Source of the DNA: an uncultured Gemmatimonadaceae bacterium | GTDB taxonomy: Bacteria > Gemmatimonadota > Gemmatimonadetes > Gemmatimonadales > Gemmatimonadaceae | Assembly: GCA_963781585.1 (NCBI GenBank) | Contig: CAWAGQ010000007.1 | Coordinates: forward strand, 32,001 to 96,000 | Direction: 5' to 3' | Length of the DNA: 64,000 nucleotides | Part shown: positions 5,373 to 48,870 of the stretch, one piece after another | Numbering within the stretch: position 1 is the first letter of the stretch | Layout of the letters: every line of letters begins with the position of its first letter | Program-made: the position numbers and the translations under genes | Notes under the pieces: generated by a model | What the model saw: the letters and a program-made list of their open reading frames with translations, nothing else | Databases searched by the model: none | Told to the model about the DNA's origin: nothing

Positions 5373-5702
5373 ATGAGCATCCTCGAATACCATGTGCTGT
5401 TGGCGCTCGCAAGCAGTCCGCTCTACGGGTATGCCATCAAGGACGCCGTGGCTACGGAGTCCGCAGGCACGCTGACCCCCCGTGCAGGCTCACTCTACCG
5501 CGTACTCGCTCGACTGATGACCTCCGGACTGGTTTCCGAGACCACGCCGGCTGACATGCCTCCGCCCCACCCGGGTCACGCGCGGAAATACTACGGACTG
5601 ACCGGAGCCGGGCGCAGGGCACTCACTGCCGAGGCTCGGCGGCTGAAGCGCACCGCCACGGTCGCCGAAAAGCGACTCGGCGTGGCCCAGGGCCGCCCGT
5701 GA
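5373..5702 (+). CDS. PadR family transcriptional regulator
   Basis: LLALASSPLYGYAI...GSLYRVLARL...RKYYGLT.AGR winged-helix signature. Stop overlaps the next start (GTGA). Confidence 0.92.
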   Translation: MSILEYHVLLALASSPLYGYAIKDAVATESAGTLTPRAGSLYRVLARLMTSGLVSETTPADMPPPHPGHARKYYGLTGAGRRALTAEARRLKRTATVAEKRLGVAQGRP

Positions 5703-8359
5703 GATCTGTGCTGACTCTGCTGGTGCGACTGTTCCCGTCTGCGTTCCGGGAGCAGTTCGGCGCGGGGATCACCGAGCAGGTCGAGCGCGACTATGACCGC
5801 GCGCGGTCGCGCGGATTCCCGGCGGCGCTCTGGTGCACGCTTGTCACGGCGCTGGATCTCGTTCGATCGGCCGTCGCCGAGCGATGGAGTCCCACCTGGG
5901 TGAGCGCACCTCCGCCTACGATGAAGGAGAGGAATATGCGGTCGACCCTGAGTGAATGGGCACGGGACCTGCGCCACGCGTCGCGCTCGCTCAGGCGATC
6001 TCCCGGATTCGCGGCGGTGACGATCGGAACCCTCGGCCTCGCGATCGGCGCCAATGCGGGCATGTTCAGCGTGGTCGATGCCGTCCTGTTGAAGCCTCTG
6101 CCATACGGCCACGCCGATCGACTCGTATACATCGCGGCCTCCGCACCGGGTTCCGATTTCCCCGCGGAGTTCGGCGTGTCGTCCGAGTTCTACGTGCAGT
6201 ACAAGGAGCAGTCGCGTCTGCTCGAGGACGTCTCGACGTTCAACTCGTTCACCAACACGCTGCGCGCGGGCGACCGTGTGGAGCGCGTCCGGATGTCGTG
6301 GCCCACGAACTCGCTGTTCTCGACGCTTGGCGCGAAGCCGATCCTCGGTCGGCTGCCGGTGGCGGACGATGGGAGCCGCGTTGCCGTGATCAGCTACGCA
6401 CTCTGGACGACGTGGTTCGGCCGCGACTCGGCGGTCATTGGGCGGTCGTACGAGATGGGTGGCGCTCCCCGAACCGTGATCGGCGTGATGGGACCGGAGT
6501 TCCGCTTCCCCAACGACGGCACGCTCCTCTGGCTCTCGAGTGAAATCACTGGCGACTCGATCGTCCCGGGTCGGTTCGGGACATCGCTCGTGGGTCGGAT
6601 GAAGCCGGGCGTCACCACCGAGACACTGGCGAAGGAACTCACCACGCTGTCCAGGCGCCTGCCGGAGCGCTTCGGCGGATCGCCGGCGTACGCGCGCCTG
6701 ATTTTGCAGCACCGCGCCGTCGTGCGCCCGCTCGAGGAGCAGCTCCTGGGTCGCGTTGCCTCTCCGCTCTGGGTGCTGGTTGGGGCGGTCGGCTTTGTCC
6801 TGCTGATTGCGTGTGCCAACGTGGCGAACCTGTTCGTGGTGCGCGCCGAGGGGCGGCAGCGCGATCTGGCCGTGCGTCGCGCCATCGGAGCTGCCAGAGG
6901 GCAACTCATCCGCCTGCAGATCTCGGAAGCGGTCGTGGTCGCGACGTTCGCGGGCGTCTTCGCCGTGATGTTCGCGATCGCGGGACTTCCGACGTTTCTC
7001 CATGCCGCGCCCGCGGGGATTCCGCGCCTCGAGGACGTGGGGATCAATGCCACGACGCTGCTGTTCACGGTGACCGCCGTGCTGCTCTCGGCCATCGCCT
7101 GCGGCATCGGTCCGGCCGTTCGGGCTTCCGCGCCGGACCTCGCGCGGCTCCGTGAAGGAGGGCGCGGCGCGACGCACCGACGAAGCTGGGCGCGTGACAG
7201 CCTGGTGATCGGGCAGACGGCGCTGGCGCTCGTGCTGCTCATCGGGTCGGGACTTCTCATCCGCAGTTTCCGTGCACTCAGCCACGTCGACCCCGGCTAC
7301 AGCACGAAGGATATCTTCACGTTCCAGATTGCGCCGGACCAGCCGCAGCTGAAGGACGGTCCATCATTCGCGCGCTTCGATCTGGATTTCGTGGATCGTC
7401 TCCGGGCGCTCCCGGGCGTGGAATCGGTAGGCCTGGTGGAGAACGTGCCGCTCAACGAGGGAACGGCGAGCGCGCATTTTCTCAGTGAAGCGATGGTCGG
7501 TGGTGACGGTGTGCTGCTGAACTACACTTTTGCCGCTGGCGACTATTTCAGGACGATGGGCATCGACCTGCTGCGCGGCAGAACGTTGGAGAGAGCCGAG
7601 GAGACGTCGTGGCGTGGGAACGTCGTCATCAGCCAGTCGGCAGCGAGGCTGCTGTGGCCCGGCGAGAATCCCATTGGCCGGCGAATGCAGCAGCGGGGAG
7701 ACTCCACATGGGTGACGGTCGCGGGCGTGGTCGAGGACGTGATGCAGTACGGCTTCCGCGACACGCCGCAGCCGCTCGTCTATCTGCCTCTCGTCGGACC
7801 CACCCCGACGAGCTGGTTCATCTCCTCGCCGGCGTATGTGGTGAAGACGCCGCGGGCCGAGCACATCGCACCCGACGTGCTCGCACTCGTGAGGCAGGTG
7901 GCGCCGGAGGCGCCGATGTACCGCATCTTCACCATGGCGGGCCTGGCGGCGGACTCGATGGTGCAGTTGTCGTTCACGATGCTGACCCTCGGCATCCTGT
8001 CCACGCTGGCGCTGATCCTCGGTGCGGTGGGACTCTACGGCGTGCTCTCGTACATCGTCACCGAGCGGACGCGGGAGATCGGTCTCCGGATGGCGCTCGG
8101 CGCCAGGGGCGAGCAGGTGCGGCGCATGGTGGTCGTGCAGGGAGCACGACTGGTCGCGGTGGGGGTGGTCCTCGGCATCGTGGTCGCCGTGGCCTCCACG
8201 CGCATCCTCGGGAGTCTGCTCTTCGGTGTCGCGGCGCTCGACACGGTTACCTTCATGGCGATGTCTGCTTCAATGGTCGCGGTCGGGCTGCTGGCGAGCT
8301 ACCTGCCGGCGCGGCGCGCGTCCAACGTAGACCCGATCGAATCGCTGCGTGGCGAGTGA
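5699..8359 (+). CDS. ADOP-type duplicated ABC permease (MacB/FtsX-like)
   Basis: DLRHASRSLRRSPGF, LLIACANVANL, REIGLRMALGA, YLPARRASNVDPIESLRGE; two MacB/FtsX halves. Confidence 0.93.
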   Translation: MRSVLTLLVRLFPSAFREQFGAGITEQVERDYDRARSRGFPAALWCTLVTALDLVRSAVAERWSPTWVSAPPPTMKERNMRSTLSEWARDLRHASRSLRRSPGFAAVTIGTLGLAIGANAGMFSVVDAVLLKPLPYGHADRLVYIAASAPGSDFPAEFGVSSEFYVQYKEQSRLLEDVSTFNSFTNTLRAGDRVERVRMSWPTNSLFSTLGAKPILGRLPVADDGSRVAVISYALWTTWFGRDSAVIGRSYEMGGAPRTVIGVMGPEFRFPNDGTLLWLSSEITGDSIVPGRFGTSLVGRMKPGVTTETLAKELTTLSRRLPERFGGSPAYARLILQHRAVVRPLEEQLLGRVASPLWVLVGAVGFVLLIACANVANLFVVRAEGRQRDLAVRRAIGAARGQLIRLQISEAVVVATFAGVFAVMFAIAGLPTFLHAAPAGIPRLEDVGINATTLLFTVTAVLLSAIACGIGPAVRASAPDLARLREGGRGATHRRSWARDSLVIGQTALALVLLIGSGLLIRSFRALSHVDPGYSTKDIFTFQIAPDQPQLKDGPSFARFDLDFVDRLRALPGVESVGLVENVPLNEGTASAHFLSEAMVGGDGVLLNYTFAAGDYFRTMGIDLLRGRTLERAEETSWRGNVVISQSAARLLWPGENPIGRRMQQRGDSTWVTVAGVVEDVMQYGFRDTPQPLVYLPLVGPTPTSWFISSPAYVVKTPRAEHIAPDVLALVRQVAPEAPMYRIFTMAGLAADSMVQLSFTMLTLGILSTLALILGAVGLYGVLSYIVTERTREIGLRMALGARGEQVRRMVVVQGARLVAVGVVLGIVVAVASTRILGSLLFGVAALDTVTFMAMSASMVAVGLLASYLPARRASNVDPIESLRGE

Positions 8360-8449: not shown

Positions 8450-9535
8450 TCAGGAGTTGAGGCCGACGTAGGTGAAGACGAGGAGGAAGGCGATCGTGGC
8501 GAAGCCGGCGATACGCCAGGTCGGGCGGTACGCTCCGTCTTCTCCCGGCTTGTCGAGGAAAGGGATGAAGATGAGCAGCGAGGCGACGAGGCTGAACGCC
8601 ACGATTCCGAAGGCATCGCCATCGAGGCCGAGCACCTTGGCGGGGAGGTACTTCAGCATCTGGTACGGCGCCATGAAGTACCACTCGGGCTTGATACCAG
8701 CGGGGGCCGGACTGAACGGGTCGGCTTTCGTCCCGAGTTCGCCGGGGAAAAACACCGCGAGCGCGGCGATGGTGCCGAGGGCGAGGAGCCACCCGATGAG
8801 GTCGTGGAGCAGAAAGTTCGGCACGAACGGCACGGAGCGCGGCGCGCCCTTGCGCTCCACGCCCGGCGGCACGCTCATCCCGAGACGTTGCACCAGCAGG
8901 ACGTGTATCCCGAGAAACAGGAACGTGAGGCCCGGCAGCAGCGATGTGTGGAGCGCGTAGAAGCGGGTGAGTGTCGCGCCGGTCACGTCTGTCCCGCCCC
9001 GCAGCATGCGTTCGATGAATGGACCGATGCCGGGAACCACGCCGGCCATCGACGTGCCCACCCGCGTCGCGAAATAGGAGAGCGTGTTCCACGGCAGCAG
9101 ATAGCCGGTGAACCCGAGGCCGAGGGTGAGGCCGAGCAGGCCGAGGCCGCTCAGCCAGGTCAGCTCGCGGGGCGCGCGGTAGGCCTTCAGGATCCACACG
9201 CTGAACAGATGAATGAACAGCACGAAGATCATCAGGTTGGCGCCCCAGACGTGGATGGAGCGGATCAGCCATCCGAACTTGGCCTGCGTCATGAGGAACT
9301 GGACCGACTCGTACGCTTCGCCGGCGCTGGGCCGGTAGTAGAAGAGCATGAGGATGCCGGTACAGACCTGAATGACGAACAGGAACAGCACCATCCCGCC
9401 CAGGAAATACCAGACGCTGTGGCGGTGGACCGGCACCCGTTTCTTGTGGATGAGCGGGAGCACGTCGCTCATTCCGATGCGATCGTCGAGCCAGGTCCAG
9501 AGGCGGGCTCCGCGGCCGGCTGGTGGCTCGCCCAT
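8450..9535 (-). CDS. Cytochrome b of a Rieske/cytb (bc-type) complex, b6 and subunit-IV parts fused
   Basis: Heme-ligand His pairs ([24 protein letters not shown]), GYLLPW, and the Qo-site motif KPEWYF. Confidence 0.93.
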
Positions 9536-9537
9536 CG

Positions 9538-9966
9538 TCAGGCTTCCTTGTTCACGACGATCTGGTCGCCGCGCACGTTCACGGCATACGGCGTGAGCGG
9601 CCTTGGCGGCGGCCCGGAGACGTTGCGGCCGTGGAGATCGTAGTGGCCGTTATGGCACGCGCACCAGATATCGGTATTCTCGGCGCTGTACTGCACGATG
9701 CAGCCGAGGTGGGTGCACACGGCAGTGAACGCGCGAACTTCGCCGGCCGAAGTCCGGATGATGAGGGCCGGCTCGTTGCCGAACTTGAAGATCTGGCCGG
9801 AGTTGGGTTTCAGATCCGACGGCTTCATCGTGAGCGTGACCGAGTTGACGGAAGACTCCCCGGCCTCGGGGGGCACGACGTAGCGAAACATCGGATAGAA
9901 CACCGCGATGAGCAGGCCACCGAACGTGGTGCCGAGCAGCCAGTCGATGAACTTCTTGCGGGTCAT
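9538..9966 (-). CDS. Rieske 2Fe-2S subunit
   Basis: CTHLGC and CACH boxes, GPPPRPL, Tat-like TRKKF followed by a TM helix. ATG at 9966. Confidence 0.93.
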
Positions 9967-10070
9967 GGCGGTCGGGTGCGGAGTGGTGTGTCGAAGCGGA
10001 TCTGCCGAGCCGCGGAGCGTTAGGCGGTCTTCGTGAGCGGCCGGACGCGCGTCACCCTCGGCCCCCGGCG

Positions 10071-11408
10071 TCAACGGGTCCTCTTTCCAGTCGTGACATG
10101 CTCGTCCTCCTCGTCGCGCTGCTCGGCCTCGATCATGCGGAGCCGGAGCCAGAGGGTGCCAGCGAGTCCGAGAATGATAGGCACGGAGATGGCCAGGCCG
10201 AGGCGCCGATACCGGTGTTCCGCGAGCGCGGCCTGGCCCTGACCGGCCGCCCCGGTGGCGGTCTTCAGGCCGACCGCGACCTGTTTCGCCACCGTATCCG
10301 CCCGGAACGAATGGACCGCGGTGCGCGCCTTCGTCAGTGCGGTGGTCACTTCGCTCAGATCGAACTGTGCCTGGCTCACGTCCATGCCCAGGTTGTTGGC
10401 CTCGTCGAGTACGTTCTGGCTGTGCTCCTGCGCCGTGCGCAACGAATCGAGCAGCGTCCGCATGGCGAGGAACTGGCGGCCGGCAGGAGTGTCGGCGTCG
10501 TGACACCGCTGACACACCGTGTGTGCGCGCGCGGTCAACGTCGTCTCCGCCGGCTGCACGATGTCGTGATTGCTGTGACAGGTGACGCACCCCGGAAGCT
10601 TGTTAGCCGTGAAGATGCTGTCGTGTCCGTTGGCGGCAAAGTAGTCGGCGACGGTCGAGTGGCACTGGCTGCAGACGTGGGGCACGTCCGCCACGCCTGG
10701 CGGGGTGGCGCCATGATTGCCGTGACAACTGTTGCAGACCGGCGCCGAAAGGTCGCCCTGCTTCAGCATGTCCTGGCCATGCACGCTCTCCGTCCACAGC
10801 CTCTGCTGGTTCGTCGGAATGTCGTAGCGCGCCATGCGCTTCGAATCCGAGTGGCAGCGGCCGCAGGTCTCGGGCACGTGCGTCGGGTACACGGAGGACG
10901 CCGGATCGGACGGCGGCAGGATGCGGTGCGCGGGGTGGCAGTCGATACAGGTCGCGACCGACGTGTCGCCATATTCGAGCAGCCGCTTGCCGTGCACGGA
11001 GGTGCGATACTCCGCCACCTGGTCCACGCGCAGCATCGGGTTGAAGCGCTTCATGAACCCGGCATCGGAGTGGCAGCGGCCGCACAGGATGGGGATGTCG
11101 CGACGGGCCGGCTTGGCCAGGAAACCCGCGCCCGGGGTGATGTTGCGCGGATCGTCGCCATGCTGCGTGACGTTGCCATGGCAGTCGAGGCAGCTGAAGC
11201 CCTTCTGCGCATGGATGTCGGTTTCGAAGTTCTTCGCCGGGGCCGACAACCGCTCATCCCGCTGCTTGAGGTGGCAGTCAATGCAAACCTGCGAGCTCGG
11301 TAGCTGCTGCGCCCATGCGCCCGCCGGGGCGGCCAGCAGCGCGACGAGCGTCAGCAGTGCCGGCGCGCGCACCAGCGCACGCGCTGCCCCCCGCCTCGTG
11401 ATTCGCAC
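10071..11408 (-). CDS. Inner-membrane-anchored nonaheme cytochrome c
   Basis: Signal peptide (AWA-Q), 9 CXXCH motifs, helical C-terminal region, C-terminal TM helix (LGLAISVPIILGLAGTLWL). GTG start inferred. Confidence 0.9.
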   Translation of the reverse strand: MRITRRGAARALVRAPALLTLVALLAAPAGAWAQQLPSSQVCIDCHLKQRDERLSAPAKNFETDIHAQKGFSCLDCHGNVTQHGDDPRNITPGAGFLAKPARRDIPILCGRCHSDAGFMKRFNPMLRVDQVAEYRTSVHGKRLLEYGDTSVATCIDCHPAHRILPPSDPASSVYPTHVPETCGRCHSDSKRMARYDIPTNQQRLWTESVHGQDMLKQGDLSAPVCNSCHGNHGATPPGVADVPHVCSQCHSTVADYFAANGHDSIFTANKLPGCVTCHSNHDIVQPAETTLTARAHTVCQRCHDADTPAGRQFLAMRTLLDSLRTAQEHSQNVLDEANNLGMDVSQAQFDLSEVTTALTKARTAVHSFRADTVAKQVAVGLKTATGAAGQGQAALAEHRYRRLGLAISVPIILGLAGTLWLRLRMIEAEQRDEEDEHVTTGKRTR

Positions 11409-11415
11409 GCGGGGG

Positions 11416-12885
11416 CTACGCACCAGGGACCTTCGTGTGACAGAGCAGGCAGCTCTGCGGATTGCGCTGCTGCGCCCGCTTGGCATCGAAGCCGGCAGGG
11501 TGCGGATTGATTCCCCAGCCGCCGGTGGCGGAATGACACTGCGCGCAGCTGGCCTGCGTGTGACAGGCGGCGCAGGCCTCGAGCCCCTGCCGAGCGGCCT
11601 GGCCGTGGTTGAGCAGCCAGAGCGGCTGCGCGCTGTGGAACGGCGCGTTGGTGCGCGTGCGCGCGCCGTTTCCTGTCCGCATGTGACACGTGCGGCAGAA
11701 CGCTTCGGTGCTGTGACAGGCTGTGCACTGCGCGTCGCTGCCATAGGCCTCCGGACCGTGCTGCTCGACGAAGTTCGGCGGATGGTACTGTGCCTTCTGG
11801 CCCTGGTGACAGTCGACGCAGAAGCTGCGGGCGTGGCAGGCGGCACATGCGCCGCCTGCTGCGGCTTGGGCGGGGTGGTCTTTCAGGAATCCGGTTGCGT
11901 GAACCGGCCGCTGTGGGATATGCACCCCGAAAAGGGTGTCGGCTCCCGGCGCCGGCAGCGCGTCGATGGCCGGTGTCACGCCTGAGCGATGACAGGTCCG
12001 ACAACTCGCCTGGACGTGACAGTTGCTGCACGTTCTGGTGGCCGCCACAACGCCGCCCGTGCCGACCCCGCCACCACCGGCGACAGTACCGTGTTTCCAC
12101 TGCCACGTACCGGTGTCGTGGCTCGCCGGCTTCGGGTACGATGGCGCGCGTCCGCGCACCAGCGCGGCGATGCGGTCGTCGGGTTCGAGCGCGCGGATGG
12201 CCGGAATCGTGGCGGCATTGAAATGACAGCGCTGGCAGCTCTCCCGCGCGTGGCAGATGGCGCAGCGGCCAGTCGCGATGCCCGGAGTGGAAGGTGCGTG
12301 CTGCATCACCCAGTCGGGCGCCGCATGGTCGGTCGGTTTTGGCAGCATCTCGACTCGAAAAGCAGGCAACCGGGTGCGGACGAGTGCGACGTGGCACGTG
12401 GCGCAGCGCGCCGCCGTGTCCGTGTGCTCGGGAGCCGCATGCGCGTGGCATCCGATGCAATACTGTGGTTGAGGCCCGCTCACTGCCATTGCGCTCGTGT
12501 CTCCCGGCGTGCGGTGACAATCGAGACAGGTCAGCCGATCGCCGGCAGAGTCGATCGACTGTTGATGCCGCACGTGCGAGTAGGCCAGGTTGGAGATCCG
12601 TGGCGTCGGGCCCATCCAGCTCACAGGCGGCTGCACCGTGCCGTCGTGACAGTTCGCGCAGGCGCCGGACGGCGGGAACATCCTGGCCGTGTCGCCCGTC
12701 GGCACACCGGAATGGCACGTGGCGCACTGGGTAAACAACCCCGCGTGCCGGCGGTGTGGAAACTGCGGCGTTGCCGGCTGGGCATACGCGTCGGTCGCCC
12801 GGCCTGGCGCAAAGGGAGCCGTCTGCGCGGTAACGGTGACGAGGAGACCTATCAGGAGCGGTGAAGCGAGAGCAGCGACTCGCAT
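11416..12885 (-). CDS. Periplasmic 16-heme cytochrome c
   Basis: Signal peptide, 16 CXXCH motifs including five closely paired doublets, AGGAGG RBS. Start overlaps the stop of the beta-barrel gene. Confidence 0.92.
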   Translation of the reverse strand: MRVAALASPLLIGLLVTVTAQTAPFAPGRATDAYAQPATPQFPHRRHAGLFTQCATCHSGVPTGDTARMFPPSGACANCHDGTVQPPVSWMGPTPRISNLAYSHVRHQQSIDSAGDRLTCLDCHRTPGDTSAMAVSGPQPQYCIGCHAHAAPEHTDTAARCATCHVALVRTRLPAFRVEMLPKPTDHAAPDWVMQHAPSTPGIATGRCAICHARESCQRCHFNAATIPAIRALEPDDRIAALVRGRAPSYPKPASHDTGTWQWKHGTVAGGGGVGTGGVVAATRTCSNCHVQASCRTCHRSGVTPAIDALPAPGADTLFGVHIPQRPVHATGFLKDHPAQAAAGGACAACHARSFCVDCHQGQKAQYHPPNFVEQHGPEAYGSDAQCTACHSTEAFCRTCHMRTGNGARTRTNAPFHSAQPLWLLNHGQAARQGLEACAACHTQASCAQCHSATGGWGINPHPAGFDAKRAQQRNPQSCLLCHTKVPGA

Positions 12886-14414
12886 CACATTCCTCCTGGC
12901 GCCGGCAACCCTGGCTCGGCGCCAAGGGCCCAGGTGCATGTGATGGTGGCGCGCAGCTGGCTCCAGTTCGGTCCGTTCTCCGGGACCCTTCCCACGTGTC
13001 GGTAATCGAAGACGGACGCGTTCAGCCGGCTGCGACTATTTAGGCGCAGTGCGCCATCCAGTCCTATTCCCACCACCGTGCCACTGCGCACACGCAGCTC
13101 GTCGGCTGTCTGGAAGGCCGTGCCGCTGAGGGCGACGGAATTGCCGTCCGCGAGGGAGCGACGCAACTGCAGACCTGCCCGGCTCCTCGCGGTGCCGAAA
13201 CCCAGGTCGAGACCGTACTGCGCATCCACGGCCCATTGCGGAGCGAGGCGGACCGCGCCGGAGCCGTTGAGCGACCACCCGCTGGAGTGCAGCGGTGCGA
13301 AGTCGACGGCGACGTCGGTATCGAGGTAGTGGCGGCGTGAGACCTGGCCGTCGAACGTGACCGCGCCGTCGCCGCGGCGCCAGCTCGCACCCGCTCCGCC
13401 GTCGACGTAGCCGACGGCGCCGAACGCGCCCCAGATGGTCCACAGATCGAAGTACGGCCGGTGTCGGCGGGCGAAGGCACGGACGGTCACACGCGGGTTG
13501 AGCGTGTAGTGAAACTGTCCGCGCAGCTCGTTCAGATCGGCCGTCGCCAGGTCGAGTTGAGCTGCCCAGTCGAACGACATCCGGTCGCCACGGAGCATTC
13601 CGTTCGTTGCCGCCCGCTCCGAATAGAGTCCGTTGCGATTCGCCGCAATGGTGCGCTCGTAGACGCCGGACAGCGACAGCGCCGGGACCGGCCGCGCCTG
13701 CGCGCGCAAGCCGAGAAGCACACCGCGCGACTCCGGGGCAAATGGCTCGACGGCCGCCAGGGCGCCACTGGTCACCGGCTCGTTGAGCCCGTTCTCCAGG
13801 GTCCATCCGCCGTACGCTTCGACGCTCAGCGCCCTCGTCGGGCGCAGCAGCACCGACGCGCCGTCGAAGTTGTTGAATGTCAGCCCGCTCACGTCCCACT
13901 GCCGGCCGGCACGCACGCGATACCGTGGGCGCTCCAGTTCGAGGTAGGCCTCCAGGGCGTCGAAATGGTCGTTGGCCTGCGGCCAGAGACTGTTGCTTCC
14001 TGCAACGACGGCCCGGCCGCGAACGTCGGCGTAGAAACGTACACCGCGTCCAAACCCCCACGCGCTCACGCGCAGATCCTGGAGCGCCGGTGCGGAGGAG
14101 GCCGTGGTTCCGCTCCCGTATACGTAGCAGTACGGCGCCGGATCGACGCACTCGACCGTGCGCCCGTCGGGGGCGCGGCGCAGCAGCGCATCACCCGTTG
14201 TGGTGGACGACAACACACTGTCGATCCGCAGCGGTCGCAGCTCCACGTAGTTCATGGTGGTGGTACCGCTGATCCGGACATGCTGTGCATCCACCCGCCG
14301 CGCGGAGACCAGCAAGGTGCTGAGGAGCGCGGCCACGAGCGTCCCGCGTGCGCGGAGCGACGCGCGACGCGCATCGATATCGAATCGAACGTCGAGAGGG
14401 CGCCGGGAATTCAT
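12885..14414 (-). CDS. Outer-membrane beta-barrel (porin of a porin-cytochrome conduit)
   Basis: Signal peptide (VDA-Q), many amphipathic aromatic-ended beta strands (YRVRAGRQW, FDGASVLL, VEAYGGW), no heme motifs, sandwiched and coupled between cytochrome genes. Confidence 0.8.
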   Translation of the reverse strand: MNSRRPLDVRFDIDARRASLRARGTLVAALLSTLLVSARRVDAQHVRISGTTTMNYVELRPLRIDSVLSSTTTGDALLRRAPDGRTVECVDPAPYCYVYGSGTTASSAPALQDLRVSAWGFGRGVRFYADVRGRAVVAGSNSLWPQANDHFDALEAYLELERPRYRVRAGRQWDVSGLTFNNFDGASVLLRPTRALSVEAYGGWTLENGLNEPVTSGALAAVEPFAPESRGVLLGLRAQARPVPALSLSGVYERTIAANRNGLYSERAATNGMLRGDRMSFDWAAQLDLATADLNELRGQFHYTLNPRVTVRAFARRHRPYFDLWTIWGAFGAVGYVDGGAGASWRRGDGAVTFDGQVSRRHYLDTDVAVDFAPLHSSGWSLNGSGAVRLAPQWAVDAQYGLDLGFGTARSRAGLQLRRSLADGNSVALSGTAFQTADELRVRSGTVVGIGLDGALRLNSRSRLNASVFDYRHVGRVPENGPNWSQLRATITCTWALGAEPGLPAPGGM

Positions 14415-15286
14415 CGGGACGCACCCCCGGTCTGATTGGCCGAACCCTGGGGCGGTTGGAGCATGTGGCACCGGGCGCAGACCCGGCCCGGTTCATGGTT
14501 TACCCGGTCCGCATGGCAAAGGAGACATTCATCGCGCGACAGCGTGGCAACCTTCACTGGAGCGTTCTGGTGACATCCCGAGCCCGCGCACCCGTTGTGA
14601 GCGGCGTTGGTATGAACGCCGGCCGGCGGTGGTTGGTGGCAGGTGCGACAGTTGGCCTGGCCTTCGTGGTGCACGTGGCAGGATCCGCAGGCCTTCGTCG
14701 GCACGAGTTGCGGCTGGTTGATGTGGCAGTCCGAGCACTGCACGCTCGTGTGCCATCCGTGGTCGAAGGTCACGCTTCGCTGCCGCGGCGTGGGCCACAC
14801 CGACAGTTTCCATTCGAGATTGAGCGTCACGGGCCCGCGGCTCGCGGGCGCGGCATGGCAGCTCATGCACGGTCGTCCTTGCGCTGTGGCGTGATGGCAG
14901 CCGGCGCACTGATCCCCTGCGGGTGGCGGGCCCGTGGCGGGTACCGGGGCGTGGCATGACGTGCAGGCCACATTCGTGTGTGCCGCATGTCCCGGTACCG
15001 CGGCGTGGCAGCGCACGCATTGGAGGCTCCGGTGCTTCTCGTGCCGGAAGGCGTACGGACCCAGGGAAACGGCTACCCGAGAAGCCCGGGTCAAGGCGCT
15101 GGTTGGGACGGTCGGAGGCTGCGAGGAGGCGGCGGACGAGTCCACGGCCGTGGAGTCCCCCGAGGCGGCCATCCCTGAATCCCCGGCCGCCTGCTCGGGC
15201 GCCCGCGAGCATGAGAGAACCGCGACGGCCAGCATCAGCCAGCAGGAAACAACCCGCACAGACCCCTCGAGTCTGGTCCCGGGCAT
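14411..15286 (-). CDS. Lipoprotein decaheme cytochrome c
   Basis: Lipobox (AVLS-C), Ser/Ala-rich tether, 9 CXXCH plus 1 CX4CH (CAGSGCH), cytochrome c3/c7-like FxHxxH motifs. Confidence 0.9.
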   Translation of the reverse strand: MPGTRLEGSVRVVSCWLMLAVAVLSCSRAPEQAAGDSGMAASGDSTAVDSSAASSQPPTVPTSALTRASRVAVSLGPYAFRHEKHRSLQCVRCHAAVPGHAAHTNVACTSCHAPVPATGPPPAGDQCAGCHHATAQGRPCMSCHAAPASRGPVTLNLEWKLSVWPTPRQRSVTFDHGWHTSVQCSDCHINQPQLVPTKACGSCHVHHEGQANCRTCHQPPPAGVHTNAAHNGCAGSGCHQNAPVKVATLSRDECLLCHADRVNHEPGRVCARCHMLQPPQGSANQTGGASR

Positions 15287-15314
15287 TAATAAGGATCGGC
15301 GCGTCCGCGCGCCA

Positions 15315-16763
15315 TCAAGGCGCTATTCTCCTGGCCGGGAGAATGTTCTCGAGCGTGATGCCGGCGACCGCCGGGATGCCATAGCTCTTCTGGAGCTGCT
15401 TGATGCTGGCGGTGAGCAGTGCCTCCATCAGGAATGGATTGTGGACCGGCGAGCCGGCCATGGCGCCGAGGGCAGCATTGAACTTGGCTCCTTCGCCAGG
15501 GGTGATCACGCTGTCCGTATTGACGAACGCCGATTTGGGCACCTGCGCCAACATGGCGTTGACCTCTTGCACCAGCAGGGAGATGCGCTCGGTGGCCACC
15601 TCCTTGGCGTTGCGGGCCACGCTCTGGTCGCCGTGACAGCCGCTCCTGGCGCAGGCGGCGAAGCTGCGCTGCGACTCGTCGCAGCCCTCGTCGACCGTGG
15701 GCTTGCCAGTGGCGTCGAGGCAGGGAATGGGCACGAAGAGGTGACCTGTGGAGTTGAACACCACCGCCCCGCTCGCGTCCTTCACATCCATGCGTGCCAC
15801 ATGACAGGTGACGCACAAATCCTCGTTGCGCGAGGAGCCGTGGGTTCCGTGGATCGTCGTGTCAACGGGCCCGAAGTCCGGCGATCGCCAGCCGGCCGAG
15901 CCGAGGAGGAGGGGACCCTGCGGCGACATCGGTCCGCGCTGGTTCGCGGCGATGTCCGGCTGGGAGCGATAGTGGTGGCACTTCATGCACAGGTTGTCGC
16001 TGACGCTTGCCACCGTAATCGGGTAGCGCAGTTGCTTGTCATTGGTCGCGTCGTGGGGATCGTGGCATACCCCGCACACGATGGGCATGTGACCAGCAAC
16101 GGCAGCCAGGCTGTCCTGCTCGGCGTATCGCACGTCGGCGCCCCACGCCTGCAGTGCGCCGTTGCCGGTGTGGCAGTCACGGCACGGCTCGTTTACCCCT
16201 GCGCTGCTGCTTGCGCGCGGCACCAGGCCGTGCGCCGACTGCGACCACTCCTCCAGGAACGGATACTGCGCGGTCTGATGGCACTCGCCGCAGCCGTTGG
16301 TGAGTGATTGCCCCACGAACATGGAGGCGAGCGGCTGCGAGACGTCAGGGTTCGTCACATGCGTCAGCCCCGGACCATGGCAGGATTCGCACTGGACATC
16401 CTGATAACGGGCGTTGCGCGTCGCCGTCCAACCGACGTTTGCGTCCGTCACGAAGTTCCCGTTGGCGTTCACGGTGTGGCATCCTTCACAGGCCGCCGAC
16501 GACATCCCGCTGTTTCGCAGATCCGTCCAGGCGTGGGAGTGCGCGGTCTGCTTCCACTCGCCGAGCTTGCCGATGTGACAATTTCCGCACACCGGCGTGC
16601 GCGCCGCGGTGTCCGAGAAGCCGAGGAACCCCTGCGCGGCCTCCGGCGGAGAATTCGCGGACGAATTCGGCGCGACGATCTGCGTCTTGTCCACGCAGGC
16701 AGCGACAGCGAGCGTCAGGATCACGACTGCCGAGAAGCGATTCACCCTGTTCTGCACATCCAT
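15315..16763 (-). CDS. Lipoprotein nonaheme cytochrome c
   Basis: Lipobox (AVAA-C), 8 CXXCH plus 1 CX4CH (CARSGCH), helical C-terminus. GGAGGG RBS before ATG at 16763. Confidence 0.92.
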   Translation of the reverse strand: MDVQNRVNRFSAVVILTLAVAACVDKTQIVAPNSSANSPPEAAQGFLGFSDTAARTPVCGNCHIGKLGEWKQTAHSHAWTDLRNSGMSSAACEGCHTVNANGNFVTDANVGWTATRNARYQDVQCESCHGPGLTHVTNPDVSQPLASMFVGQSLTNGCGECHQTAQYPFLEEWSQSAHGLVPRASSSAGVNEPCRDCHTGNGALQAWGADVRYAEQDSLAAVAGHMPIVCGVCHDPHDATNDKQLRYPITVASVSDNLCMKCHHYRSQPDIAANQRGPMSPQGPLLLGSAGWRSPDFGPVDTTIHGTHGSSRNEDLCVTCHVARMDVKDASGAVVFNSTGHLFVPIPCLDATGKPTVDEGCDESQRSFAACARSGCHGDQSVARNAKEVATERISLLVQEVNAMLAQVPKSAFVNTDSVITPGEGAKFNAALGAMAGSPVHNPFLMEALLTASIKQLQKSYGIPAVAGITLENILPARRIAP

Positions 16764-17175
16764 GCAGGTACCCTCCCCAGTGGCACGCAGCCCTGATGGT
16801 AATTCCGCCCCCTGGGCAGCGGCCGCGTTATGCAAAGCGTCGGACGCGTTTCTCGGCTTCTGTGTCAGGCGTTTCCGCCGTCCGTTGCCCGGGTTTTCAC
16901 CGCGATCCCAGCGGCCCTGCAGCGATAACGCCTCGAAGAAGATTGACTGAGAGGGAAACCCCTACTGGTCGCGTCGGACATTTGCCGCGATCCGTGCCCC
17001 GATTCCGTCTGACATGGATGGTCTGCACGACGGGTGCGGGGCGCGCGCAATGTCACCGAAGCTGTTGTCTGGAAAGAGTTTGGGATGAAACGTTAGGCGA
17101 ATCGGATTCGGGGCAGCGCGACGACAGCCGGTGCTTTCCCCACGAGCATGGATCCGTGCCGAGACTCCGGTGATG

Positions 17176-17213
17176 CGCAACGTGCCGGGGATCCTGAGCC
17201 CCGGCACGTTGCG
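17176..17213 (-). terminator. Perfect 15-bp stem-loop after the S10 peptidase gene (terminator-like or mRNA-stabilising)
   Basis: CGCAACGTGCCGGGG-ATCCTGAG-CCCCGGCACGTTGCG, 20 nt past the stop codon. No U-tract. Confidence 0.6.
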
Positions 17214-17232
17214 AGCCCCCCGACGTCACCTC

Positions 17233-20438: not shown

Positions 20439-20483
20439 TTAGTGGTATCGCGCGGTCGTCACGAACCGTTGAGCCGGCTCAGC
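20439..20483 (+). repeat. Repeat B, copy 2
   Basis: 40/45 nt identical to 18915-18959; looser similarity continues about 50 nt upstream. Confidence 0.88.
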
Positions 20484-20682
20484 AGTGATCGCCGTGTGCT
20501 CCGAAATGGGGTCCGCAGAAAATGGGGTCAGACTCGATTTATCGGACCGGGGCTCCCTTCGTCGCATCGAGTCGGGCCCTGGAGCCCGGCATTGCCCCGG
20601 AAACGCTTTCCATAGGAACGATTCGGCTGTACTTTCGCCTTCGATCCCGGCTTCGACCGGGAGGCCTCTTGCACCTATTGTC

Positions 20683-21342
20683 ATGGCCTTCTCCTTCTTC
20701 CGCGCCGCGACCGGATCCGCGCTCGCCCTGAGCACCCTCGCCATCCCGAGCGCCGCCCAGACGCCCCTGTCGGGCGTCGAGCAGGCAAGGCAGGACAGCA
20801 TCCGCCGGCCCTACACCAGGGCCGACATCGACTTCATGTCGGGGATGATCGGCCATCACGCCCAGGCCGTGAAAATGGCGGGCTGGGCGCCGTCGCATGA
20901 TGCGAGCAAGTCGCTCCAGATCTACTGCGGCCGGATCGCGATGGGACAGTCGGCCGAGATCGGGCTGATGCAGGCCTGGCTCCGGGACCGGAACCAACCG
21001 GTTCCGGAAGCCGATCCACGGGGCATGAAGATGGAAATGGGGGGCATGACCCACTACATGGTGATGCCCGGCATGCTCACCGACTCCCAGATGGCGCAGC
21101 TCGACTCCGCGCGCGGCGTGGAGTTCGACCGGCTGTTCCTGATCTTCATGATCCAGCACCACCAGGGCGCGATCGATATGGTGGATACCCTGTTCAACAC
21201 GCCGGGCGCCGGACAGGACGAGATCGTCTTCAAGTTCGCCAACGACGTCCAGGTGGATCAGAGCACCGAGATCGAGCGCATGAAGCAGATGCTGGCGGCG
21301 CTCCCGCCGGCGTCGAAGCCCCGACCGCATAACCACGACTGA
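20683..21342 (+). CDS. Secreted DUF305 family protein
   Basis: Twice-repeated FM.GMI.HH.QA / FL.FMIQHHQGA motif, MPGMLT, Q.TEIERM; signal peptide. Confidence 0.9.
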   Translation: MAFSFFRAATGSALALSTLAIPSAAQTPLSGVEQARQDSIRRPYTRADIDFMSGMIGHHAQAVKMAGWAPSHDASKSLQIYCGRIAMGQSAEIGLMQAWLRDRNQPVPEADPRGMKMEMGGMTHYMVMPGMLTDSQMAQLDSARGVEFDRLFLIFMIQHHQGAIDMVDTLFNTPGAGQDEIVFKFANDVQVDQSTEIERMKQMLAALPPASKPRPHNHD

Positions 21343-21420
21343 ATGGCGCGACGCAGCTGATCGCGCGCATCGCGTCTTTCCCCGGATTGCCCCGCTCCCT
21401 CACCCAGACCGGAAGCACCC

Positions 21421-23667
21421 ATGCGTCCCGTTCCATCCACGCACCGTATTGGTGCGAGATCCCCATGGCCCGTGCTGCGCACCGCTTGCGCGGCGATTGC
21501 CTCGCTCGCCGTGGCAGGCTGCGCGTCATCGTCAGGCAGCGCGATGTCGGAGAATCCGCAACCGCAGGGGATGGTCGACATGTCCGGGCCGGTGGTGACG
21601 GCGCCGTCGCCCGATCCGCGGGTCGGCCTGAAGGCCGGGCTTCAGGACGCCGGATCGGCGATCTGGAACATGCGGCTGGTCTCGCACACGCCGTCGCCGC
21701 AGGGATTTGCGGGGATCACCAACTCCGACCTCGCGTTCTCCGGCCAGAATGTCATTCAGGGGAATTACAACGGCTTCCAGGTCTGGGACGTCTCGAATCC
21801 GGCCCAACCGAAGCTGCGAATCGGCAAGATCTGTCCGGCTTCGCAGAGCGACGTGTCGGTCTATCGGAACCTGCTGTTCGTTTCGGCCGAGGCGCCGAGC
21901 GCGCGCCTCGATTGCGGAACGCAGGCCCCGCGCGATGTGGTGAGCAGCGATCGCATTCGCGGCCTCCGCATATTCGACATCACCGACATCGACAATCCGA
22001 AGTACATCGCCAACGTGCAGACCTGCCGCGGTTCGCACACCCACACCGTGGTGCACGATCCCCGGGACCCCGCCAACGTGTACGTCTACATCTCGGGGAC
22101 ATCGGGTGTGCGTCCATCCGAAGAACTCGCGCGCTGCAATGACAATCCGTGGGACCCCAACACCTCGCAGTTCCGCATCGAGGTGATCCGGGTTCCGCTC
22201 GCGCACCCCGACCAGGCGGAAGTCGTGAGTGCACCCCCGATCTTTGCCGACCCCACGTCGGGCTCGGCCGCCGGTCTCGCGTACATCACCAGCCACGGCG
22301 CGTCGCCGGCGGACACCGCGAACCTTCGACGCCGGGCGCAGTTCGACAGCGCGCGTGCCCGGTTGGCGCCGGTGACCGCGACGTCGACCGCGGCGGATTC
22401 CGCGCGCTGCAACGCGGAGGTCGAGGCGCTGGCGCGGACGTACGAGGTGGACCTGACGGCGGGGCGTGGGGGGCGCGGCGGTCGCGGCGGACTGGTGGGC
22501 GGAGGATGCGGACCCGATGCCGTTGGCGGACGGGGGGGCCGCGGCGGTCGCGGCGGGGGAGGGAATGCGGCTCCCGTGACGCGTGAGGATTCGGCGCGCG
22601 TCGCCTTTACGAATGCGGTGGAGGCGCTCAGGCCTCTGACCGCGACGTCGAACAGGTCGGACTCCGCCGCGTATCGCACACAGGTCGATGCGCTGGCGAA
22701 ACGGTACGGGGTCACCTCGCCGTTCGCGCCGCGCATGATCACGCAGTGCCACGACATCACCGTGTATCCGGATGTCGGCCTGGCCGGTGGCGCGTGTGCG
22801 GGGATGGGGCTGCTGCTCGACATCCGCGACACACCGCATCCGAAGCGCATTGCCGCGGTGTCCGATTCCAACTTCTCGTTCTGGCATTCGGCGACCTTCA
22901 GCAACGACGGGTCGATGGTGCTGTTCACCGACGAGTGGGGCGGGGGCGGTGCGGCCTACTGCCGGGCCGGCGATCCGCGGGAGTGGGGGGCCGACGCGAT
23001 CTTCCGGATCGTGAACGGGAAGATGGTCTTCCAGAGCTACTACAAGCTGCCGGCGCCGCAGACCCAGCTCGAGAACTGCGTGGCGCATAACGGCTCGCTG
23101 ATTCCCATTCCGGGACGCACGATCATGGTGCAGGCCTGGTATCAGGGCGGCCTGTCGGTGTTCGAGTGGACCGACCCCCGGCATCCGCACGAGATCGCGT
23201 TCTTCGACCGGGGACCTAACGATTCGACGCGGGCGATGGGCGGTGGATTCTGGTCCGTATACTGGTACAACGGACATCTGGTCGGATCCGAGATGCAGCG
23301 CGGACTAGACATCTTCGAACTCACGCCGAGCGCGGCGATTTCGCAGAACGAGATCGACGCGGCGCAATCCGTCCGGATGGATTTTCTCAACGTGCAGGAT
23401 CAACCAAAGTTCGTCTGGCCGGCGAGCTTTGCGCTGTCGCGGTCGTACGCCGATCAGCTCGAGCGATGGAAGGGTCTTGCGCCCGACCGGATCGCGGCGC
23501 TGCGCAGCGGCCTGACGAGCGCAGAGGCGCTGACGGGCGCCGCACGGAAGAGCGCGTTGAGCGCGCTGGCCGGGCAGGTGGGTGGATACGCGAAGGGGTC
23601 GGGCGATCCGCAGCGCGTGCAGTGGCTGGCGGCGTCGGTCCGGGATCTCGCGGACGCGACCCGCTGA
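21421..23667 (+). CDS. LVIVD-repeat beta-propeller lipoprotein
   Basis: NSDLAF, GNYNGF, CRGSHTHT, CHDITVYP, FWHSATF, DEWGGG, CVAHNGS; lipobox (AVAG-C). Adjacent to DUF305, the usual pairing. Start uncertain. Confidence 0.85.
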   Translation: MRPVPSTHRIGARSPWPVLRTACAAIASLAVAGCASSSGSAMSENPQPQGMVDMSGPVVTAPSPDPRVGLKAGLQDAGSAIWNMRLVSHTPSPQGFAGITNSDLAFSGQNVIQGNYNGFQVWDVSNPAQPKLRIGKICPASQSDVSVYRNLLFVSAEAPSARLDCGTQAPRDVVSSDRIRGLRIFDITDIDNPKYIANVQTCRGSHTHTVVHDPRDPANVYVYISGTSGVRPSEELARCNDNPWDPNTSQFRIEVIRVPLAHPDQAEVVSAPPIFADPTSGSAAGLAYITSHGASPADTANLRRRAQFDSARARLAPVTATSTAADSARCNAEVEALARTYEVDLTAGRGGRGGRGGLVGGGCGPDAVGGRGGRGGRGGGGNAAPVTREDSARVAFTNAVEALRPLTATSNRSDSAAYRTQVDALAKRYGVTSPFAPRMITQCHDITVYPDVGLAGGACAGMGLLLDIRDTPHPKRIAAVSDSNFSFWHSATFSNDGSMVLFTDEWGGGGAAYCRAGDPREWGADAIFRIVNGKMVFQSYYKLPAPQTQLENCVAHNGSLIPIPGRTIMVQAWYQGGLSVFEWTDPRHPHEIAFFDRGPNDSTRAMGGGFWSVYWYNGHLVGSEMQRGLDIFELTPSAAISQNEIDAAQSVRMDFLNVQDQPKFVWPASFALSRSYADQLERWKGLAPDRIAALRSGLTSAEALTGAARKSALSALAGQVGGYAKGSGDPQRVQWLAASVRDLADATR

Positions 23668-24893: not shown

Positions 24894-24947
24894 CTTGACA
24901 GTCTAGTGATGAGCGCAGCATCTTGCGCCAATCACTAGACCGTCTAG
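24894..24947 (+). promoter_or_regulatory. Sigma70 promoter flanked by two palindromic PadR operators
   Basis: TTGACA(24895)-N18-CATCTT. CTTGAC-A-GTCTAG at 24894-24906 and perfect CTAGAC-C-GTCTAG at 24935-24947. Confidence 0.75.
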
Positions 24948-24958
24948 CCATGGTGCCC

Positions 24959-25291
24959 ATGTCCGGCAAGCACGCGCCGCTGCTGCAAGGGACGCTCGAC
25001 CTGATCGTGCTCCAGCTCCTCAGGGCCGAGCCGACCAACGGCTACGATCTGAGCCTCCGCATCCAGGCCATCTCCCGCGACGTCCTGAACGTGAACGCCG
25101 GATCGCTCTACCCGGCGCTCTATCGCCTCGAGGAACGCGGCCTGGTGCGCGCGGCATGGCAGGAGACCGGAACCGGCCGGCGCGCGAAGGTCTACTCCGT
25201 TACCGCCGCCGGCCGCCGTCACCTCGCCGCACAGCGTGAGAACTGGGGGCGGTTTTCCGCTGCCCTGACCGCCATCCTCAAGGTCGACTGA
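24959..25291 (+). CDS. PadR family regulator (acidobacterial type)
   Basis: LLQGTLDLIVL, GSLYPALYRLEERG, RRAKVYSVTAAGR. Alternative start at 24950. Confidence 0.93.
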   Translation: MSGKHAPLLQGTLDLIVLQLLRAEPTNGYDLSLRIQAISRDVLNVNAGSLYPALYRLEERGLVRAAWQETGTGRRAKVYSVTAAGRRHLAAQRENWGRFSAALTAILKVD

Positions 25292-25304
25292 CCGGCGAAC
25301 GGCC

Positions 25305-35139: not shown

Positions 35140-35200
35140 GGCCGGTGCGTTTGACGAATGGGAGCGAGGTGAGGTGGCCCGCGATGGCGACCCGGGGCGC

Positions 35201-35252
35201 GATACATTGACATTCGACAATACGGGGCCGTATTGTCGAATGTCAAGGTATC
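35201..35252. promoter_or_regulatory. 52-bp near-perfect palindrome containing back-to-back sigma70-like promoters/operators
   Basis: 25-bp arms with one mismatch (19-bp perfect core TTGACATTCGACAATACGG), 2-nt centre; TTGACA-N18-TATTGT reads on both strands. Confidence 0.7.
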
Positions 35253-35428
35253 TGGGGGAGAGGCCGCGGAGCCGAGTCGGTGTTGGCCATTCCCCCGCAG
35301 GCTGCCTGGGCTACGCCAGGCTCGGGCGGGGTCATGGGCGATTCTCCACACCCGCCGCCCACGCGTCCATCGTGCACCACTCTCGTTGCGTCCGGGTACT
35401 CGCGTCCCCGCTGACTCCAGTTTCAGAC

Positions 35429-36628: not shown

Positions 36629-36637
36629 GCCCGCTGC

Positions 36638-48748: not shown

Positions 48749-48870
48749 GAACGATGCTGCTCCGCTGGGGAAATGGGGGGGCGAATGGAATAGAGCACCC
48801 GCGTCCGACCCGCGCCACTCATGACGGCTCTCGCGGCCGGGTGTGGTACGTACCTCTACCCGCGGTGGGC

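Follow-up and report, generated by a model that had tools for sequence, protein, structure and literature searches.

A Gemmatimonadaceae gene cluster that may join a Rieske/cytochrome b quinol oxidase to an outer-membrane porin-cytochrome conduit

In the MtrCAB system of Shewanella, as in MtoAB/PioAB, a large barrel holds a periplasmic multiheme cytochrome threaded through it, and a lipoprotein cytochrome sits outside. The OmaB/OmbB/OmcB and ExtABCD systems of Geobacter combine a barrel with a multiheme cytochrome of the periplasm and with one or two lipoprotein cytochromes, and are not known to have linked Rieske/cytochrome b genes. In this study, we have analyzed a cluster of seven genes (g1 to g7, positions 8450-16763) in a stretch of 64,000 nucleotides (nt) of DNA from an uncultured Gemmatimonadaceae bacterium (GenBank assembly GCA_963781585.1, contig CAWAGQ010000007.1, positions 32,001 to 96,000; hereafter the window), which encodes multiheme cytochromes and a predicted barrel together with a Rieske protein and a cytochrome b. 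We regard it as reasonably probable that g1-g7 make up one envelope-spanning electron path, in which an inner-membrane Rieske/cytochrome b quinol oxidase is joined to an outer-membrane porin-cytochrome conduit. The architecture of such a wire is supported by the genes observed and by the predicted structures, from which we infer the electron transfer steps, the surface exposure of g1 and g2, the outward direction, the Q cycle, the conservation of energy and the acceptor.

The gene content of g1-g4 matches that of OmaB/OmbB/OmcB and ExtABCD, and g1 has one weak match on that side, to the 'GSU2203 family decaheme' model (42.8 bits, cut-off 325). The threading arrangement of MtrCAB matches the one predicted here for g4 in g3. 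The threaded protein, however, carries 10 hemes in MtrCAB and 16 in g4, and the quinol oxidase of MtrCAB is a CymA-type tetraheme protein, whereas here a Rieske/cytochrome b complex is encoded in the same operon. The extHIJKLMNOPQS cluster of Geobacter sulfurreducens encodes the porin-like ExtI, cytochromes of 5, 12, 10 and 4 hemes (one of them a lipoprotein), the Rieske protein ExtO and the b6-type ExtP and, like g1-g7, unites porin, multiheme cytochromes, Rieske and cytochrome b in one cluster (PMC5877670). In the list of features given in that paper, Ext also has a rhodanese-like ExtH and a selenocysteine cytochrome ExtKL, neither of which is among g1-g7, and ExtP is a protein of 23 kDa, whereas g7 has a fused subunit IV part (PMC5877670). 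Further differences are the barrel, which is of another family, the heme numbers (9, 10, 16 and 9 here) and the OcwA-like outermost cytochrome. Scored with the NCBIfam models, g7 reaches 201.4 bits for ExtP (cut-off 290) and g5 22.6 bits for ExtM (cut-off 800). Judged from these sequence comparisons, the g1-g7 system is no member of Ext and would resemble it in its working. He et al. (2017, PMC5566968) proposed that the PCC3 and PCC4 clusters of Fe(II) oxidisers reach across the whole envelope, with a porin, multiheme cytochromes and, in the inner membrane, a b-type heme protein in exchange with quinone. As described there, their inner-membrane protein has five helices and two WX3HX13H motifs, PCC4 is without an extracellular cytochrome and the hosts are mostly Proteobacteria (PMC5566968); such a protein is absent among g1-g7, and it is by this description that we set the two clusters apart.

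As for the phylum itself, a 2024 study of marine Gemmatimonadota reported three MtrABC operons and homologues of DFE_461-465, with iron reduction and oxidation indistinguishable from annotation (PMC11316326), and a 2026 cave survey reported porin-cytochrome clusters with petB/petC in four assembled genomes, including that of the Gemmatimonadales SAW209, family GWC2-71-9 (PMC13264449). The SAW209 clusters share petB/petC and the idea of a conduit with g1-g7 and can be likened to them by description only; the account of them, one sentence and a figure, contains no protein-level analysis, structure, synteny survey or family definition, which the present work adds (PMC13264449). A first-pass annotation of this stretch, made from the sequence alone, had known of no characterised conduit in the phylum. 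That part stands for the open-access literature searched, in which there is no characterised Gemmatimonadota conduit, and is to be completed by the survey-level mentions just cited (PMC11316326, PMC13264449). The idea itself is less new than it had appeared, as the Ext cluster (PMC5877670) and the petB/petC survey (PMC13264449) precede it: the concept is already known, and the new detail lies in the barrel family, the OcwA-like lipoprotein, the 16-heme threaded cytochrome and the swapped inner-membrane modules.

All seven genes lie on the minus strand. In the order of transcription, they encode a nonaheme lipoprotein cytochrome with an OcwA-like predicted fold (g1, 15315-16763; 482 amino acids (aa), 8 CXXCH and 1 CX4CH motifs, lipobox VAAC), a decaheme lipoprotein cytochrome (g2, 14411-15286; 291 aa, 9 CXXCH and 1 CX4CH, lipobox VLSC), a predicted outer-membrane beta-barrel with a signal peptide and zero heme motifs (g3, 12885-14414; 509 aa), a periplasmic cytochrome whose signal peptide lacks a lipobox (g4, 11416-12885; 489 aa, 16 CXXCH), a further cytochrome with a signal peptide and one C-terminal hydrophobic helix (g5, 10071-11408, with an alternative start at 11423; 445-450 aa, 9 CXXCH), a b6f PetC-like Rieske 2Fe-2S protein with an N-terminal membrane helix (g6, 9538-9966; 142 aa) and a cytochrome b in which b6-like and subunit-IV-like parts are fused (g7, 8450-9535; 361 aa). 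From g1 to g7 the intergenic gaps measure 28, -4, -1, 7, 104 and 2 nt, the g4 start and the g3 stop codon overlapping by 1 nt. The first-pass annotation had described seven co-oriented genes, several of them overlapping or nearly abutting, and a total of 42 CXXCH and 2 CX4CH motifs; the open reading frame (ORF) calls and the translations agree with it on the genes, on their spacing (-4, -1, 7 and 2 nt) and on the count. This density is far beyond chance, since CXXCH is absent from the other 37 ORFs of the window (15,709 residues in all) and, of 46 CXXCH motifs in all six frames, 43 fall within 10071-16763, of which 42 are on the minus strand. Read from the sequence, the 44 heme motifs look like a chain running from the quinone pool through the barrel to the surface.

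The cluster is found repeatedly in the phylum. Among species-representative genomes, that is, contigs from one genome per species, 408 pattern matches were obtained and the barrel gene was confirmed at 400 places; the best 80 of these 400 loci were examined, all of them from metagenome-assembled genomes. Their names are mostly Gemmatimonadaceae, Gemmatimonadales, Longimicrobiales or Gemmatimonadota, with two labelled simply 'uncultured bacterium'. The loci nearest to ours all come from Gemmatimonadaceae, Gemmatimonadales or Longimicrobiales genomes (best barrel identity 74%), in line with the Gemmatimonadota origin that had been guessed from the letters. The synteny across such genomes on which the earlier reading depended is also there. 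In the loci long enough to judge, g4 lies directly 3' of the barrel gene in all 71, g2 directly 5' of it in 61 of 72 and g1 within 4 kb upstream in 55 of 60, so that the barrel gene, with its 24-strand model, adjoins multiheme cytochrome genes as in porin-cytochrome conduits. The genes g5-g6-g7 follow g4 in that order in 24/61 loci, and do so also in L021, on a shorter contig. In a maximum likelihood tree of the 80 barrels (quick IQ-TREE search, L028 being left out for its low coverage), all 25 barrels linked to this Rieske/cytochrome b (bc) module fall into one group of 29 rows, starred in the tree (Shimodaira-Hasegawa approximate likelihood-ratio test (SH-aLRT) 98), together with 2 on short contigs and 2 linked to molybdoenzyme genes (Mo-linked); its sister is a group of 15 rows with 10 of the 13 Mo-linked barrels. 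The bc label requires 4 changes on this tree, compared with a mean of 21.6 after shuffling, and as few as 4 were reached in 0 of 500 shuffles.

A beta-barrel had been claimed for 12885-14414, and the predictions agree with it. The g3 protein gave zero Pfam or NCBIfam family matches at E <= 0.1, and its 60-sequence profile found one chance-level match among PDB chains (best E = 1.4). A search of 5.8 billion proteins returned 185 relatives, the named ones all 'hypothetical protein' of Gemmatimonadota, and a profile search of 1.84 billion cluster representatives returned 552 at E <= 1e-3 and 195 at E <= 1e-30. The AlphaFold2 model, computed from an alignment of 60 sequences (A1), consists of the signal helix and 24 long beta strands, with a mean predicted local distance difference test (pLDDT) of 86.9 and a predicted template modeling score (pTM) of 0.78. 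Foldseek matched it in the PDB to outer-membrane barrels only, the 24-strand ushers FimD and PapC coming first (template modeling (TM) score 0.46-0.48); a known conduit porin, MtrB included, is absent among the fold matches listed. In the Protein Atlas, g3 falls with unnamed Gemmatimonadota clusters only, the nearest named clusters being generic barrels at 0.92. The models suggest a large barrel in the outer membrane for g3, with about 24 strands and belonging to a family of its own. From general barrel geometry, 24 strands correspond to a lumen estimated at roughly 3 nm, which suits a slim multiheme cytochrome.

Because the g3 and g4 genes overlap by one base, this pair was chosen for complex prediction, with residues 40-509 of g3 (alignment A1) and 22-489 of g4 (alignment A3). 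The interaction prediction score from aligned errors (ipSAE) was 0.72, 0.74 and 0.74 in three runs, against 0.00 for the best of 3 controls; in the calibration of the ipSAE mark, 116 of 157 solved complexes and 2 of 215 mismatched pairs passed, counts that are approximate for user-made alignments. The partners had pLDDT values of at least 75, and contact agreement between runs was at least 84%. The predicted contacts of g4 touch 23 of the 24 strands of g3, often at alternate residues, and include the invariant WTIWGAF motif (325-331). On the g4 side, 91 of 97 contact residues are at position 330 or beyond, in the stretch carrying the last seven heme motifs, and residues ~330-482, with these seven motifs, are placed inside the barrel. 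This is the contact pattern that a lumen-threaded cytochrome would give, and the insertion into the barrel for which the earlier reading had proposed a test is, at the level of a controlled prediction without hemes, obtained for the 16-heme g4. Recall of a solved MtrAB-type complex by the predictor is less likely, because g3 and g4 show no sequence likeness to a solved conduit.

On the periplasmic side, 16 CXXCH motifs are kept in 66 of 70 g4 orthologues, and g4 has 16 additional conserved histidines as possible distal ligands, which together are consistent with bis-histidine hemes throughout. The g5 protein, with Pfam matches to Cytochrome_C7 (3.7e-15) and Paired_CXXCH_1 (1.5e-14), has nine motifs in 26/26 orthologues and a helical stalk of ~100 aa before its C-terminal membrane helix; a hydrophobic C-terminal 18-mer is found in 20/26 by a crude rule. 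The PDB search found no solved relative of g5, which is not a homologue of cytochrome c1 or f. We propose that it is their counterpart by topology, its heme domain lying in the periplasm and its anchor at the C-terminus: it supplies the membrane-anchored c-type subunit typical of the bc1/b6f superfamily and lies 5' of g6 in 24/24 scored loci. An alternative complex III was also considered for the cluster and rejected; the ActA-like stretch of g4 is short (7e-8 over ~50 residues).

At the quinol end, the Rieske/cytochrome b complex that had been read from the sequence is well matched. For g6, the Pfam Rieske model scores 50.2 bits (cut-off 20.3) and the NCBIfam PetC models 72 bits, below their cut-offs; the cluster-binding boxes are CTHLGC (84-89) and CACH (102-105), and C84, H86, C89, C102, C104 and H105 are conserved in 26/26 sequences. 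The second box stands in the context CACHNG, unlike the high-potential CPCHGS pattern, and presumably indicates a lower-potential, menaquinol-type centre, which we take as a lead. For g7, Pfam Cytochrome_B scores 162.9 bits (1e-47; cut-off 27.2) and Cytochrom_B_C matches at 4.7e-11, and among solved structures its best matches are to cytochromes b6 (1.9e-59) and to full-length bc1 cytochromes b (2.2e-51). At least 25 of the 26 sequences keep the histidine pairs H95/H109 (H-x13-H) and H196/H211 (H-x14-H) and the PEWY of the Qo site (283-286), with P, W and Y in 26/26 and E in 25/26. Since these pairs, the PEWY and the g6 boxes are conserved, the parts for quinol oxidation at a Qo site are present, and by sequence g6 and g7 have the features of a Rieske/cytochrome b complex of the bc1/b6f superfamily. 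A different bc complex is encoded at L065:14140-16259, where a Rieske gene accompanies one for a cytochrome b that ends in a fused monoheme cytochrome c domain and is 36% identical to g7. It may be the housekeeping complex III of the phylum, and its separate existence suggests that g6/g7 are a dedicated paralogue.

At the other end of the putative path, g1 has all nine heme motifs invariant or at least 90% conserved in 57 sequences, and nine motifs are found in 57 of the 61 complete orthologous ORFs. Its model (pLDDT 82.9, pTM 0.82) ends with the helices 380-405, 422-434 and 443-461, and its sole significant fold match in the PDB is OcwA (6i5b; E 2.2e-7, TM 0.48/0.47 over 431 columns, 20% identity), which a sequence search against the PDB also finds, at E 1.3e-5; Pfam adds Cytochrome_C554 at 2e-6. 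OcwA is a nonaheme terminal reductase on the surface of Thermincola potens, composed of c554-like and NrfA-like modules and a C-terminal helix bundle (PMC6703420). The same features are predicted in g1, with its nine conserved motifs, c554-like N-terminal module, long C-terminal helices and match to 6i5b. OcwA, however, sits on a Gram-positive cell wall, whereas g1 is a diderm lipoprotein encoded beside a barrel. Going by its model, g1 is an OcwA-like protein with a predicted lipid anchor in a diderm cell, and we propose it as the outermost electron-donating protein.

This likeness also opens another reading, in which the cluster serves to respire a dissolved or colloidal substrate in the periplasm or at the cell surface. 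Candidate substrates are nitrite, hydroxylamine, sulfite, polysulfide and selenite/tellurite, the last as proposed for the Geobacter Ext cluster; g1 would be the catalytic protein and the barrel a channel for substrate or electrons. Such a reading would suit the place of g1 in the OcwA/NrfA/c554/MccA fold group, and OcwA itself has two hemes with open coordination and a weak, slow turnover of nitrite and hydroxylamine (PMC6703420). In g1, 8 further histidines are conserved for 9 hemes in the 57 sequences, so that one heme may lack a distal histidine. Sub-threshold matches point the same way: g1 to the C-terminal part of the NCBIfam 'UshA-like (seleno)protein' model (60.6 bits, cut-off 275) and g7 and g5 to ExtP and ExtM, the Ext models being those of a selenite/tellurite reduction operon. 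The scores with the Ext models are all far under their cut-offs, however. The fold matches of g1 to NrfA-type enzymes are weak compared with OcwA (E 0.01 or worse, TM ~0.25), the catalytic CXXCK motif is absent from its translation, and a 44-heme chain, a lipid anchor and a threaded barrel exceed the needs of a soluble substrate, so that we consider a reductase of this kind improbable. The statement of the first-pass annotation that no catalytic reductase is encoded has to be softened in view of the OcwA/NrfA/c554 fold group, in which OcwA shows the weak turnover mentioned (PMC6703420).

The second lipoprotein, g2, matches Pfam Cytochrom_CIII at 2.8e-11 and has a low-complexity linker of ~45 aa after its lipid-bearing cysteine. 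In its orthologues of the bc clade, whose N-termini were read by eye, the lipobox cysteine is likewise followed by a linker rich in Ala, Pro, Asp and Thr. A crude lipobox rule was positive in 21 of the 56 ORFs at the g2 position, a low yield that arises because the other clades carry a different, longer protein there. Neither g1 nor g2 has Asp at +2 after the lipid-bearing cysteine; this criterion for retention in the inner membrane is a sorting rule of E. coli only.

In the electron path that we favour, menaquinol would be oxidised at the PEWY (Qo) site of g7, one electron going back over both b hemes in a Q cycle, which would contribute to the proton gradient. The second electron would pass by the g6 Rieske cluster to the nine hemes of g5, anchored at its C-terminus as in cytochrome c1 or f, and from g5 to the 16-heme g4, whose last seven hemes would be threaded through the 24-strand g3. 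At the surface, the 10 hemes of g2 and the 9 of g1 would deliver the electrons to an acceptor that is large or insoluble, such as a mineral of Mn(IV) or Fe(III), humic matter or a second cell.

The same chain could be read backwards, with electrons entering from an extracellular source (Fe(II), Mn(II), a mineral, a cathode or a partner cell) and reaching periplasmic acceptors or oxidases through the multiheme chain. The bc complex would either run in reverse, driving electrons uphill to quinone, or link the chain to quinol-dependent steps. Multiheme chains are reversible in principle, and a bc1 complex runs in reverse in Acidithiobacillus ferrooxidans. In 13 related loci the conduit adjoins a NapA-like molybdoenzyme of the periplasm, accompanied by DsrO/DsrP-like proteins and two extra cytochromes, which would fit an uptake of electrons for the reduction of nitrate. 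It is for Fe(II) oxidisers that PCC3 and PCC4 were proposed (PMC5566968), and for marine Gemmatimonadota that annotation was found unable to tell iron reduction from oxidation (PMC11316326). Neither the operon nor the window, however, contains an oxidase, a cupredoxin, a small soluble cytochrome or a carbon-fixation gene. Reverse bc flow costs energy and is useful mainly to autotrophs, and Gemmatimonadota are generally described as heterotrophs. The sole structural relative of g1, moreover, is a terminal reductase (PMC6703420). Outward flow is favoured on these grounds, namely the missing oxidase, cupredoxin and carbon-fixation genes, the reductase-like g1 and the cost of reverse bc flow to a heterotroph, and uptake appears unlikely.

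A number of observations weigh against one outward wire made of all seven proteins. A Rieske centre usually feeds a high-potential chain and bis-histidine multiheme cytochromes are usually of low potential. A passage from Rieske cluster to low-potential hemes is awkward thermodynamically, so that an outward path with a Q cycle would suit fairly oxidising acceptors only, Mn(IV) and chelated or poorly crystalline Fe(III) being the likeliest. On the structural side, g3 has no sequence relation to MtrB, PioB or Ext porins in Pfam or NCBIfam at E <= 0.1 (where we take MtrB_PioB and TIGR03509 to be the models for MtrB/PioB barrels) or in the PDB profile search. Conserved g3 residues are weakly enriched at the predicted interface, not significantly (odds ratio 1.5, p = 0.07), all structural models were built without hemes, and the complex prediction covers the g3-g4 pair only, its score being the model's own confidence. 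The 469-nt region between g1 and the upstream S10 peptidase gene (16764-17232), presumed to hold the promoter, gave 0 sigma-70-like sites in the promoter scan, and terminator-like sites number 8 against 4.1 ± 1.9 expected, no useful excess over background. The gap between g5 and g6, 104 nt here and 9 to ~1000 nt in relatives, means that g6-g7 may have their own promoter. In 37 of 61 loci the conduit comes without the Rieske/cytochrome b module and adjoins NapA-like/DsrOP-like genes (13 loci), a [NiFe] hydrogenase (11 loci) or housekeeping genes, and adjacency may for this reason partly reflect a neighbourhood of respiratory genes. Kin, finally, share labels, and the clade pattern by itself shows co-inheritance and not function.

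The gap before g6, the 37 conduits lacking the module and the several kinds of respiratory genes clustering near conduits would all suit two unwired neighbours, with g1-g4 a conduit and g5-g7 an ordinary Rieske/cytochrome b complex for aerobic or nitrate respiration. Against such a division, g5 starts only 7 nt after g4 and the order g4-g5-g6-g7 is kept in 24/24 scored loci, the module-linked barrels form one clade, a nine-heme c subunit would be needless for transfer to a soluble carrier, and a different bc type, with the cytochrome b-c fusion of L065, exists in the phylum. Two independent units are, in our judgement, a poor prospect, and a single path from quinol to surface through g1-g7 remains the reading we prefer; none of the refuting conditions set with the first-pass annotation, as far as computation reaches them, spoke against it.

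Beyond this locus, we put forward tentatively that g1-g4 form a phylum-wide outer-membrane 'electron socket', into which interchangeable inner-membrane modules are plugged: here a true Q-cycle Rieske/cytochrome b complex with energy-conserving export to Mn(IV)/Fe(III), and in sister lineages a 20-heme anchored cytochrome, or hydrogenase or NapA-like modules alongside. Gemmatimonadota are an abundant phylum of soils and sediments, seen as aerobic heterotrophs. If the path worked as proposed, many of them could respire minerals, humic matter or partner cells once oxygen is exhausted, which would change the placing of this poorly understood soil phylum in the cycling of iron, manganese and carbon. 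Energy would be conserved at quinol oxidation, unlike in model metal reducers with their non-pumping oxidases of the CymA, ImcH and CbcL types, and the cluster would be a naturally occurring case in which to ask whether extracellular electron transfer can be driven by a Q cycle of the Rieske/cytochrome b type. Bioelectrochemical engineering would gain new parts in the g3 barrel and the OcwA-like lipoprotein. These proteins are now annotated hypothetical, and family models for g1-g4 would improve the annotation tools for iron genes.

The neighbourhoods of the conduit in the related loci are varied. The NapA-like molybdoenzyme occurs at L014, L026, L027, L032, L039, L041, L047, L061, L063, L069, L070, L071 and L076; 10 of these 13 loci have genes for a DsrO-like iron-sulfur protein and a DsrP-type membrane subunit, and several have genes for 5-heme and 4-heme cytochromes. 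At L032, the NapA model gives 657 bits, short of its cut-off of 904, and the DsrP model 393 bits, exceeding its cut-off of 350. A [NiFe] hydrogenase set lies within a few kb at L036, L050, L059, L060, L064, L065, L067, L074, L077, L078 and L080, with small and large subunits, to which the Pfam-scanned loci add a b-type cytochrome and two a maturation protease. L059 and L079 have a second, divergent type of Rieske/cytochrome b together with proteins of 21 to 24 hemes. A CcmF gene is near the conduit in about two dozen loci. Three genomes carry two conduits of different type (L006/L033, L003/L067 and L004/L080); those of L006 and L033 (OY970192.1, 1299926-1343358) belong to different barrel clades and stand ~22 kb apart on the same chromosome, one with the bc module and the other followed by CcmF.

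The longer protein found at the g2 position in other clades has 620-730 aa, 20-21 heme motifs and hydrophobic N-terminal segments (e.g., L036:7803-9890), and is present in 17 loci (L019, L022, L030, L033, L036, L037, L045, L048, L050, L053, L056, L062, L064, L065, L072, L073 and L075). A weak NapC/NirT match was seen at the N-terminus in 2 of 5 such proteins scanned, and the protein may be a built-in, membrane-anchored quinol dehydrogenase that replaces g5-g7 in those loci.

Within the window itself, the GC content of the g1-g7 region resembles that of the rest, and an island of horizontal transfer was rejected for this reason. A scan of the entire window with Rfam gave 0 matches. A GC-rich hairpin (15297-15314, minus strand; 7 pairs, 6 of them G-C, with a weak tail) takes up most of the 28 nt that separate g1 from g2; it possibly has a role in attenuation or mRNA stability, and could tune the amount of g1 relative to the remaining operon. 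Away from the cluster, four adjacent genes at 35429-39762 (minus strand) match DltD, an AMP-binding enzyme, an MBOAT acyltransferase and a phosphopantetheine carrier protein, a set of the Dlt-like D-alanylation type that is unexpected in diderm Gemmatimonadota. Four long paralogous genes for permeases with MacB periplasmic core and FtsX domains lie at 5555-8359 and 25269-27992 (plus strand) and at 32506-35310 and 46337-49225 (minus strand), one of them with a PadR regulator gene (24899-25291) directly 5' of it. At 20473-23667 (plus strand), a gene for a DUF305 protein is followed by an ORF of 768 aa without a Pfam match.

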